A DNA stretch of 64,000 nt. It comes from Escherichia coli. GTDB taxonomy: Bacteria; Pseudomonadota; Gammaproteobacteria; Enterobacterales; Enterobacteriaceae. Numbering within the stretch: the first letter of the stretch is position 1; every line of letters begins with the position of its first letter. Below, piece after piece: positions 12,001 through 15,000 of this stretch. The position numbers are program-made. The stretch lies in NCBI RefSeq assembly GCF_001677475.2, contig NZ_CP015229.1. One strand, written 5' to 3'.

Positions 12001-15000
12001 TTTAATTATCTGAGATAAACTCAACGTCAAGAGGTGGGTTATGATTAGATATAGTGGAATATTTCTATCGCTGTTAATGCTTTCAGGTTGTGCAACCGAA
12101 GCATTGAAGAATGAACAAGCTGAAACTGTTATTACTGCGGGTAACAAGGCGGTTGCGGCGAATGCAAGTTTCTTTAAACAATACTATGCTTCTCGTGAAA
12201 ACTTCCTTGTTAATTTTTATGCGACTAATCCGGATTGTGCATTGCGACCTGATTATGAAACGATTATGGAAAATAATACTAATAAAGAGTCCTTATGTTT
12301 GCAATCAGAGAAAGGGGGGAAAACATCGTATAAAGATATTACTAAAATTCAATTGGCAACAACAGAAAAACAAAAACTACTGGCTTCACTTGAGGTCGTT
12401 AATAGTATGAGTTCCTATGTGGAGTTGTTGACGGTGGGTATGGATGTTGAGGATAGTAAACAAATTATATTACTTAATCAGGCGCTCGATCACGCAAACA
12501 ACGCCCAAAAACTACTTGGCGTTTCAGAAGGTGAAGAACTGACTAAGTCAGCTGTGGCTGTTAAAGATTTAGTTCAATATTTCAATGGATTATACAAAGA
12601 GAAGATTAAATCAGAAAATGTTGGTAAAACGGTAGGTAGTGACTGGCCACGACTTCAAAGAAATTTACAAGATTTACTTGATGATATAGCAACGAAACAG
12701 CAGCAAATGGATCGGAATAATTTTGCGAACATCAGTAATAATTTTTATTACTATAATAAGGCCCGGGCAAATACTAAAAATATAGAATTTAAGACGTTAA
12801 AGAACAGGCAGGAATTTTTGAGTGCAGTAATTAATCTTAATGAAAGCAGATTGCGTTCATCTGATCCGGCGGCTCCAGCAATACAAGCTATTAATGCCTT
12901 CATGGATAAAGGAAATCATCTACAAGATTTATACTCTAATAAATCTCTTTCAAAAGCGGATTTAGATCGTAGGAATGAGATCCTGCGTTCTCAAGTTATT
13001 AGTGGTCTACAGGCGTCAGAGGAGCTGGCAAAACTTCTTATTGCCAGCGGAGTTATGTTATAGGAGGTCATTATGAACGATGTGCAAAATCGACGAATAC
13101 TGGCATTGCTCAATATGCTGTACTATGCCTTAGGAAACCGAACAACCTGCGATATATGTCACAAATATTTTATTCTGGTTTTGTCGGTAATGAATAATCT
13201 GACAATTAATTATGGCTCGCAAACGTCACCAGAACTGACTGGTATTAGTTATGAAGATGCTAATGATTTGATCACTGAATTAATACTGTTTATTGAAGAC
13301 GTCAATGCGGATAATGATATGGAATATCCCGCACACTTGAATAAAATTCAAGCTCTTCTTAATTTTGCCGTGGCTAATTAAGCCATTCAGTATCTAAAAT
13401 TAGCACCTCAAGAGGCGATCTTTTGAGGTGCTTTCCCTTAATAATCAATCCCTATTTGCGCCTTAACACCGGCATCAAACGCATGTTTGATGGGGCGCAG
13501 CTCACTTACCGTATCCGCCAGTTCAAGAATATCCCGATGACAGCCTCGACCCGTGATAATCACCGTCTGTTGATGTGGACGTTCATTTAACGCCTGCACC
13601 ACTTCTTCCAGTGGCAAATAGTCATACGCTACCATATAAGTCAGCTCATCAAGCAAAACCATATCCAGTGAGGAATCAGCAAGCATCCGCTTTGCATGTT
13701 GCCAGACTTCGCGGCAGGCGGCGGTATCAGACTCGCGGTTTTGTGTATCCCAGGTAAAGCCCGTTGCCATCACCTGAAACTCAACGCCATGTGGCTCCAG
13801 CAGATTGCGTTCGCCATTAGGCCAGGTGCCTTTAATAAACTGCACGACGCCCACTTTTTTTCCGTGACCAACTGCGCGTGTTGCCGTACCAAATGCCGCG
13901 GTGGTTTTGCCTTTTCCATTGCCGGTAAAGACGATGATAATACCGCGTTCATCCTGGGCCTGGGCCACACGAGCATCTACTTTTTCTTTCACTCGCTGCT
14001 GACGCTGTTGGTAGCGTTCATCACTCATTGGGAAATTCCTGGTTTACGGCCCGGTTGGGCGTCAAAGGTCATGCCGGTTTTACGGCGGCTGTCATCGCCC
14101 ATCAGCCAGAGGTAGAGCGGCATGATATCAGCGGGTGTTTTAAGTTTCTGTGGATCTTCGGTCGGGAAGGCGCTGGCACGCATTGCGGTGCGCGTACCGC
14201 CTGGGTTAATGCAGTTGACACGCAGGCGCTGCTGATATTCATCGGCCAGTACCTGCATCATCCCTTCGGTGGCAAATTTCGACGCTGCATATGCGCCCCA
14301 GTTGGCTCGCCCCTGACGTCCAACGCTTGATGAAGTAAAGACCAGTGAACCGGCGTCAGATTTGAGTAATAAAGGAAGCAGTGCCTGGGTGAGCATAAAG
14401 GTGGCATTAACGTTGACCTGCATGACGTCCTGCCAGACCTGCGGATTTTGTTCGCTCATTGGGCAAACATCGCCGAGCAATCCGGCATTATGCAAAACAC
14501 CATCCAGACGCGGATAATTAACGGCAATGCGCTGTGCCAGTTGTTGGCAATCTTCGGACGTGCAGGTCAGCAAATCGAGAATAAACCACTGTGGCTGACG
14601 CCCAGTTTCTTCGTTTATGTGGCTGGCTACCTGACGTAATTTTTCTTCATTACGGCCCAACAGAATCACTGTCGCACCATAGCGTGCATACGTCTTCGCT
14701 GCTTCACGACCAATTCCATCGCTGGCTCCCGTCACCAGGATAATGCGATCATTGAGTAAATCTTGTTTTGGTTGGTAATGCATGGCTACTCCTCAACGAC
14801 GTTGTCTGTCGCGCTGCCAGTGTACTTTATGACTTTGGGGCTTTATGCCTGAAACAGAAGGGCATTTCAATCAGCCTGGGGCGATAACACCGCAAAATGG
14901 ATACTTTGTCATACTTTCGCTGCAATAACATCTCTGCGAGACGGCCAAACATGCCTGTTGTAAACTGTGAGCCAAAGCGTTGTTTAACCAAGGTGGGGAC

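Follow-up and report, generated by a model that had tools for sequence, protein, structure and literature searches.

An accessory two-gene cassette between rluB and cobO of Escherichia coli encodes a member of an unnamed family of predicted lipoproteins

What does the AT-rich DNA that separates rluB from cobO in some Escherichia coli chromosomes encode, and what might it do for the cell? We addressed this question in a window of 64,000 nt, the whole stretch analysed here, from contig NZ_CP015229.1 (RefSeq assembly GCF_001677475.2). In this window the entire rluB–cobO spacer is an AT-rich two-gene accessory insert of 1566 nt (positions 11872–13437), with a guanine-plus-cytosine (GC) content of 0.33–0.40 against ~0.53–0.57 in the flanks; the spacer of strain K-12 is 39 nt long and contains one different hairpin. 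The first open reading frame (ORF), ORF-A (12041–13063, + strand), encodes a 340-residue lipoprotein precursor, and the second, ORF-B (13073–13381, + strand), a 102-residue acidic partner. Both are annotated in RefSeq as “hypothetical protein”. An original prediction made from the window had recognised ORF-A as a lipoprotein gene; that reading stands, although it missed the downstream partner gene and the accessory, mobile and dimorphic nature of the locus. We conclude that ORF-A is a member, and for this report the founding member, of an uncharacterised and unnamed lipoprotein family with a partner gene, ordinary in kind. As to function, we tentatively read the cassette as a module that travels on mobile elements and acts at the envelope in exclusion or protection (probability about 0.35), a proposal drawn from its genomic context.

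ORF-A comprises 340 codons, its product begins with residues MIRYSGIFLSLLMLSGC, and a Shine-Dalgarno sequence read directly from the window (AGAGGTG, 12030–12036, + strand) lies 4 nt upstream of its ATG. By our own arithmetic, at a stop-codon frequency of ~0.07 per codon, the chance of a 340-codon open frame at 36% GC is ~2e-11. Comparison of the window allele with a diverged E. coli allele (L002) gave a ratio of nonsynonymous to synonymous substitution rates (dN/dS) of 0.23 (dN 0.245, dS ~1.05), and the ratio within the window’s own allele class was 0.27. Because these ratios demonstrate selection on the encoded protein, ORF-A is a real gene under purifying selection, and it is very likely a real lipoprotein gene. 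An overlapping 99-residue frame (12111–12410, + strand) is open only in a near-identical allele (L001), whereas the diverged homologues L002, L004 and L007 each have 5 stops in it, so this frame is an artefact, as had been suspected from the start. No sigma-70-like promoter was found upstream of ORF-A. Database copies of ORF-A are often labelled “partial” and end at contig ends at many different lengths (protein clusters P0001 and P0009); these entries likely stem from assembly breaks in AT-rich DNA, as complete genomes almost always hold the intact cassette.

The signal peptide (codons 1–16) and the lipobox L14-S15-G16-C17 span positions 12041–12091 (+ strand), with C17 as the predicted acylated N-terminus of the mature protein, followed by Ala at +2 and Thr at +3. 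Lipoproteins were recognised by a positive n-region, an uncharged hydrophobic h-region and a lipobox of the form [LVI]-x-[GAS]-C with its cysteine at position 15–35; in ORF-A these elements are R3, IFLSLLML and LSGC, respectively. A PROSITE-type rule (PS51257-type), written as six uncharged residues followed by [LIVMFWSTAG]x2-[LIVMFYSTAGCQ]-[AGS]-C, with the cysteine within the first 35 residues and a basic residue near the N-terminus, matches ORF-A and 31 of its 35 aligned relatives. The remaining four keep x-[GA]-C at the aligned column, and the lipobox cysteine is invariant among relatives down to 15% identity. In the Citrobacter orthologues the sequence of the signal peptide differs (MNIHLPLLLIALSLSGC vs MIRYSGIFLSLLMLSGC) while its architecture is unchanged, which argues for the start upstream of the lipobox and for selection on the signal itself. 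Asp at +2 was found in no family member (35 aligned, 31 rule-matched members checked). Enterobacterial lipoproteins with Asp at +2 avoid the Lol system and are retained from outer-membrane sorting; under this rule the Ala of ORF-A predicts that its product is sorted to the outer membrane. Both lipidation and localisation are thus what we infer from rules of this kind, and the signal peptide with its lipobox, the upstream start and the Ala in place of an Asp retention signal all hold as originally proposed.

Two other envelope routes were considered for these proteins. Tat export of ORF-A or ORF-B was dropped in view of the lack of a consistent twin-arginine motif. The C-terminal tail of ORF-A (13025–13060, LAKLLIASGVML) is hydrophobic, conserved and similar in distant relatives; it is too short for a membrane helix and is modelled with low confidence. 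A u-spanin, which combines an N-terminal lipobox with a C-terminal transmembrane segment, was rejected for ORF-A, in which the hydrophobic tail extends for only ~12 residues.

The mature part of ORF-A had been described as a helical, low-complexity domain rich in K, E, Q, N and L with coiled-coil-like stretches. Its composition makes the claimed richness roughly right (L 11.5%, N 9.6%, K 8.4%, E 7.1% and Q 5.9%), with A (9.9%) and S (8.0%) also high, whereas the low complexity was not confirmed: the mean entropy over 20-residue windows is 3.27 bits and just 2 windows fall below 2.8. A first AlphaFold model built from 10 close sequences reached a predicted local distance difference test (pLDDT) score of 46 and was replaced by an AlphaFold2 model from 35 diverse sequences (pLDDT 74.9; predicted template modelling score 0.71). 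The latter contains a helix at residues 18–62, a beta hairpin (strands 73–77 and 100–104) and then seven helices up to residue 339. The mature domain is therefore modelled as an all-alpha intramolecular bundle of eight helices with one hairpin; the helical character was correctly foreseen, and the model shows a folded bundle instead of an extended coiled coil.

C66 (in NPDC) and C86 (in SLC), whose codons lie at 12236–12238 and 12296–12298 (feature 12236–12298, + strand), are invariant in 35/35 sequences, and exactly these two cysteines occur in 33/35 mature proteins. In the model they bracket the first strand of the hairpin. The natural reading is a predicted structural disulfide formed in the periplasm; the two further cysteines pointed out earlier have thus proved to be a family-wide invariant pair consistent with such a bond. 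Y126 is likewise invariant in 35/35 relatives, down to 15% identity. Other conserved positions are mostly hydrophobic or small, together with P64, E187, R256 and R316, and no catalytic-looking motif was found among the conserved positions of the family. As library searches also returned no enzymatic family or motif, the original view that ORF-A lacks an enzymatic signature is upheld.

ORF-B begins 9 nt past the stop codon of ORF-A, and its Shine-Dalgarno sequence (GGAGG, 13063–13067, + strand) overlaps that stop codon; the two genes are co-transcribed and translationally linked. The 102-residue product has a net charge of -7, carries neither a signal peptide nor a transmembrane segment, and its hydrophobic stretches are too short to form a membrane helix. 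The position of ORF-B is kept in every clade examined: a same-strand ORF starts 1–25 nt after the lipoprotein stop codon in 11/11 clades with downstream DNA, usually with its own Shine-Dalgarno sequence. Since the partner follows in all 11, the unit of inheritance and selection is the two-gene cassette, and this accessory cassette is very probably obligate, autonomous and horizontally mobile. The partner has 88–107 residues in ten clades, is acidic or neutral in nine of them, and lacks a signal peptide or transmembrane segment. A longer form of 255–275 residues occurs in Sphingomonas and in a metagenomic clade related to it; here a similar soluble N-terminal part is followed by a linker rich in Pro and, at the C-terminus, by a membrane domain of three helices. 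The short and the long partner are connected by their position and by a weak hhalign match (E 8e-4, probability 25%). Partners diverge very fast, sharing 18–29% identity between clades.

Within ORF-B, the motif C26-x-x-C29-H30 (CDICH, 13148–13162) and H88 show an invariance within the Escherichia/Citrobacter clade that does not extend to the distant partners. Searches of the ORF-B profile against the PDB returned only chance-level C2H2 zinc-finger matches, through the CxxCH motif. These residues may form a clade-specific metal site. A haem-c site at CxxCH was rejected: the motif does not extend beyond the Escherichia/Citrobacter clade, and haem-c attachment is unlikely because ORF-B has no signal peptide.

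The pair was identified by blastn in 1234 of 5426 complete E. coli genomes (22.7%), and the other E. coli genomes sampled have an empty rluB–cobO site. At least 80% of the cassette is present in one piece in 1234/1234 carriers; among 40 evenly spaced carrier rows, the two lowest-ranked fell below 99% coverage, one of them with insertion sequence (IS) IS1 inside the cassette (hit H73). Neither flanking direct repeats nor mobility genes were found at the insert. Plasmid records yielded three E. coli matches only, predicted to be non-mobilizable and one of them 4.9 Mb long, and these are probable pieces of chromosome. The sampled carriers are mostly human, dog and bird isolates, and the sampled non-carriers include K-12, O157 and livestock or environmental strains. 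This pattern, together with the hypervariable exposed hairpin described below, would suit a host-interaction factor of extraintestinal E. coli, that is, a surface or outer-membrane lipoprotein for survival in serum or against antimicrobial peptides, comparable to Bor/Iss or TraT. We consider this unlikely: lineage alone may account for the host pattern, relatives are known from Sphingomonas of soil and plants and from Raoultella, Buttiauxella and Kosakonia, so that the distribution is not host-restricted, and such a role does not account for the conserved cytoplasmic partner.

The E. coli carriers fall into two allele classes: 775 share >=95% identity with the window allele, and 459 share ~72%. 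Between the classes, rluB, the upstream spacer and the first ~215 nt of ORF-A show 93–100% nucleotide identity. From 12256 to ~13395, a segment (12256–13395, + strand) that covers the remainder of ORF-A and ORF-B, identity falls abruptly to 37–85% per 60-nt window; over the next ~400 nt, within cobO, it recovers gradually. The sharp left edge is an intragenic recombination junction in ORF-A at ~12255. Both alleles accordingly have the promoter region, signal peptide, helix 1 and C66 in common and diverge from the hairpin onwards. Synonymous divergence between the classes is ~1.05 in the cassette (saturated), 0.39 in cobO and 0.087 in rluB, and dN is 0.245 in the cassette and 0.003 in rluB; the saturation relative to rluB means that the alleles are far older than the surrounding core genome. 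Homologous recombination, acting through the flanks and through the 5' part of ORF-A that both classes conserve, exchanges the alleles. The highest proportions of nonsynonymous differences (pN, 0.33–0.47) and indels are found at residues ~61–105, around the hairpin, and at 181–225. The hypervariable hairpin region itself, in which allele length varies, corresponds to residues 67–105 (12239–12355, + strand). E. albertii has an allele with 86% identity, and Citrobacter has alleles with 54–56% identity at the same rluB–cobO site. The 3' half of cobO (13438–13830, - strand) shows 85–93% identity between carriers of the two alleles, compared with 97–100% further out, and appears to hitch-hike with the old cassette alleles.

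An exhaustive profile search placed 52 family clusters among 1.84 billion representatives. Approximately 28 of these are full-length (324–357 residues, 15–25% identity), with a lipobox in all. The family occurs in Alpha-, Beta- and Gammaproteobacteria, to which AFDB adds members from Kosakonia, Pectobacterium, Herbaspirillum and sphingomonads. Two clusters were placed in Raoultella and Buttiauxella by the organism names obtained in a partner search. The first of two GTDB genome scans was negative and the second found three Sphingomonas loci. A PSP3-like (P2-type) prophage of Buttiauxella agrestis carries the cassette between its gpS and gpV genes, and in Raoultella ornithinolytica the cassette sits in an island with AlpA, an integrase and an IS. 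This island also encodes a protein with an FRG domain, matching the PADLOC candidate PDC-S15 (E 2e-52), and a putAbiC protein next to HicB (L028 4398–5330 and 13876–14774). In another lineage the cassette is found near VapBC, Fic and an IS200-type transposase. Positions of this type, beside defence genes or in cargo slots of mobile elements, make up 3 of ~9 independent contexts and were not seen in E. coli, Citrobacter or Sphingomonas, a sample too small for statistics. Throughout Enterobacterales its GC content is 36–43% against 53–57% in the host, which is 13–21 points lower. P2-like phages differ in the cargo at their gpS/gpV junction, a variable slot that is empty in PSP3 (L023); in Klebsiella phage ST147-VIM1phi7.1 it holds a 347-residue hypothetical protein without a signal peptide (L022 1966–3009), which we considered as a relative and found to be unrelated. 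Flanking the cassette in two Sphingomonas genomes are a non-specific endonuclease with a DRGH motif and a metalloprotease of the M4 (HExxH) type (L019 1159–2085 and 3947–5260; L020 4068–4994 and 7085–8164).

We searched for a known family that would account for either protein. Pfam gave no significant match for ORF-A, 35 aligned relatives, one Sphingomonas member or one long partner, and NCBIfam, PHROGs and PADLOC yielded nothing significant for ORF-A or ORF-B. Profile searches of the PDB with both proteins were likewise without significant result, as was Foldseek with the ORF-A model against the PDB (nothing at E <= 0.001), and Rfam had no match in the insert. Against AFDB50, Foldseek retrieved relatives named just “Lipoprotein” from E. 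coli, Citrobacter amalonaticus and Kosakonia radicincitans, and weaker neighbours labelled imelysin-like, DUF3829 and PilJ/NarX-like. No paper was found that mentions the RefSeq protein identifiers or the locus, and the literature on P2 cargo slots and exclusion lipoproteins contained nothing about the family. An Lpp/OprI alanine-zipper assignment (NF040598) was rejected at 13.8 bits against a 43-bit cut-off, the match being confined to residues 3–37, the signal peptide.

The weaker AFDB neighbours raise the question of whether ORF-A is a diverged lipoprotein of the imelysin-like/EfeO type or the DUF3829 (YiiG) type, with, for example, a metal-related periplasmic role. The neighbours so named are lipoproteins of similar size; the “Imelysin-like domain-containing protein” matched at E 4e-7 and template modelling (TM) score 0.57, and the DUF3829 entries at E 6e-3 to 4e-2. 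However, the Pfam models of both families failed to match any of 35 members at E 0.1, or the Sphingomonas Leaf33 member, whose 346 residues equal the length of the imelysin-named entry; that entry is probably a member of the present family named by automatic annotation. For imelysin-like/Peptidase_M75 proteins (EfeO, IrpA and Algp7), no HxxE and no His or Glu motif are conserved in the ORF-A family, H151 being limited to the enterobacterial clade, and no internal duplication was detected in ORF-A. For DUF3829 (PF12889; E. coli YiiG), hhalign against YiiG gave a probability of 1.8% and covered the signal peptide only. Both assignments were rejected, and kinship of this kind is very improbable.

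Based on the genomic contexts and the predicted architecture, the exclusion reading can be formulated as follows. By the established rules of lipoprotein biogenesis, the ORF-A precursor would be exported by Sec, diacylated at C17 by Lgt, cleaved before C17 by LspA and N-acylated by Lnt, and with Ala, not Asp, at +2 the lipoprotein would be carried to the outer membrane by LolCDE, LolA and LolB. The mature protein would fold in the periplasm as an all-alpha bundle, with the short hypervariable beta hairpin after helix 1 probably clamped by a C66–C86 disulfide made by DsbA. ORF-B would remain in the cytoplasm as a small acidic helical protein, and the Sphingomonas partner would be anchored in the inner membrane by its three-helix domain. 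Through the variable face of the hairpin the lipoprotein may bind or mask an envelope component and so exclude an invading agent such as a phage or an envelope-targeting toxin, as exclusion lipoproteins of phages and plasmids do; on the cytoplasmic side, the partner may control the system or complete it. We put this reading forward because copies occupy cargo positions in mobile elements and have defence and toxin-antitoxin genes as neighbours, because the distribution is patchy, and because the ancient dimorphism has the exposed disulfide hairpin at its centre. A bolder version, which we regard as speculative, is that of a previously unrecognised two-gene envelope immunity system against phage or toxin entry, or an infection sensor, with the hairpin as specificity determinant and the partner as transducer or effector. 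A hairpin with this function would explain the ancient dimorphism in E. coli.

Several observations weigh against the exclusion reading. No other cargo was seen at the E. coli rluB–cobO site, so this site is not a general defence hotspot. The PADLOC-DB v2.0.0 hidden Markov models recognised 0 families among ORF-A, ORF-B and nine distant homologues and partners, and neither cassette protein matched a family in PADLOC, PHROG, Pfam or NCBIfam. The family was absent from IMG/VR in four scans, and tblastn against 50,697 GenBank phage records gave no match, which makes carriage by phages exceptional. No window of the cassette has a ratio of nonsynonymous to synonymous differences (pN/pS) above 1 (maximum 0.78), so that the data do not demonstrate positive selection. 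Lipidation, localisation and the disulfide are predictions, and any contact between the two proteins is hypothetical. Finally, the known exclusion lipoproteins Llp, Cor, TraT and Ltp are single genes that are not known to have a cytoplasmic partner.

In Alphaproteobacteria the cassette has a host-like GC content (66–67%) and ordinary, core-like chromosomal neighbours, which also speaks against exclusion and suggests a resident envelope role there. The corresponding alternative is a resident module with a housekeeping-type role in the envelope, such as ligand capture, maintenance or the sensing of stress; the periplasmic bundle would bind, scaffold or sense and ORF-B would act as a cytoplasmic or inner-membrane regulator or assembly factor, with mobility in Enterobacterales being incidental. 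We regard this as a possible explanation and nearly as likely as exclusion, with a better fit to the alphaproteobacterial copies and the membrane-anchored partner. The inner-membrane domain gained by the Sphingomonas partner is what a trans-envelope signalling pair could have, and the weak Foldseek neighbours (PilJ/NarX-like and “imelysin-like”) are periplasmic four-helix-bundle proteins. Overall purifying selection and the unbroken state of the cassette in its carriers point the same way. On the other hand, its absence from 77% of E. coli, which makes it dispensable, and from most Enterobacterales, its rarity in the profile search, the copies in a prophage cargo slot and a defence-type island, and the deep allelic dimorphism are not expected of a resident module.

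The gene order, a large exported protein followed by a small acidic helical one, and the co-divergence of both genes between alleles also recall a toxin-immunity or addiction pair like colicin/Im or Myxococcus SitA/SitI, in which the exported lipoprotein would be harmful and the small cytoplasmic protein would neutralise it. Toxin-antitoxin genes are present nearby in two loci. However, searches revealed neither a toxin domain nor a catalytic motif, and the last 40 residues of ORF-A rank among its most conserved instead of forming a swapped polymorphic toxin tip. A cytoplasmic antidote would moreover be unable to reach a periplasmic lipoprotein after export. A ClyA-family alpha pore-former was rejected at a Foldseek E of 0.13 and TM scores of 0.28–0.32, and the hydrophilic hairpin (NNTNKESLCLQSEKGGKTSYKD) indicates that ORF-A is not ClyA-like. 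A toxin-immunity function is therefore improbable.

The insert lies in an otherwise familiar neighbourhood, with trpE, yciV, yciO, yciQ and rluB on one side and cobO (btuR), yciK, sohB, yciN and topA on the other. A GC-rich hairpin after rluB (11891–11910) is terminator-like on both strands, with a weak T-tract on the + strand, and a second terminator-like hairpin with 13-nt arms (13402–13432) lies between ORF-B and the convergent cobO. Further upstream, the C-terminus of YciQ (DUF2207; 10730–10785) ends in a glycine-rich tail, GGGAGGGAGGGGGGGW.

This cassette is present in approximately 23% of sequenced E. coli, many human clinical isolates among them, and both of its proteins are “hypothetical” in every database. 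What is new here is a protein family with an invariant lipobox cysteine, a Cys–Cys pair and one tyrosine. Its obligate partner gene is defined as well, and so is a natural polymorphism at one fixed position of the chromosome, where the cassette is either absent or present as one of two alleles. Because the K-12 site is empty and two natural alleles exist, the cassette is unusually easy to test genetically. If a role in exclusion or defence is confirmed, the known defence repertoire would gain a type based on an outer-membrane lipoprotein; otherwise, the cassette represents a further family of envelope lipoproteins in need of a name.

Comparison with known systems places the cassette near several of them. 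ORF-A resembles the imelysin-like (Peptidase_M75/EfeO) lipoproteins in size, lipoprotein signal, all-alpha bundle and the weak Foldseek match, but differs in having no Pfam match, HxxE, two-domain duplication or iron-uptake gene neighbours. YiiG and other DUF3829 proteins are also helical lipoproteins of ~350 residues and weak Foldseek neighbours, whereas YiiG has a long Pro/Ala-rich linker, Asp at +2 and no paired small gene. The SitA–SitI and colicin–Im pairs share with the cassette a large exported protein followed by a small acidic helical cytoplasmic one, as well as polymorphic and mobile loci; a SitA–SitI-type polymorphic toxin/immunity pair was rejected, as ORF-A is homologous end to end with a conserved, not modular, C-terminus and no toxin domain. 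The exclusion lipoproteins, namely Llp of T5, Cor of phi80 and N15, TraT of the F plasmid and Ltp of Streptococcus phage TP-J34, are much smaller (~60–240 residues) and show no sequence or profile similarity to ORF-A (PHROGs), and most copies of the present family lie outside phages. Nevertheless, they too are anchored in the envelope through a lipobox and travel on mobile elements as accessory cargo, in some cases within tail-gene regions, and Ltp is all-helical like the ORF-A model. The copy of the cassette between gpS and gpV of a P2-like prophage occupies a position comparable to that of exclusion-lipoprotein cargo.

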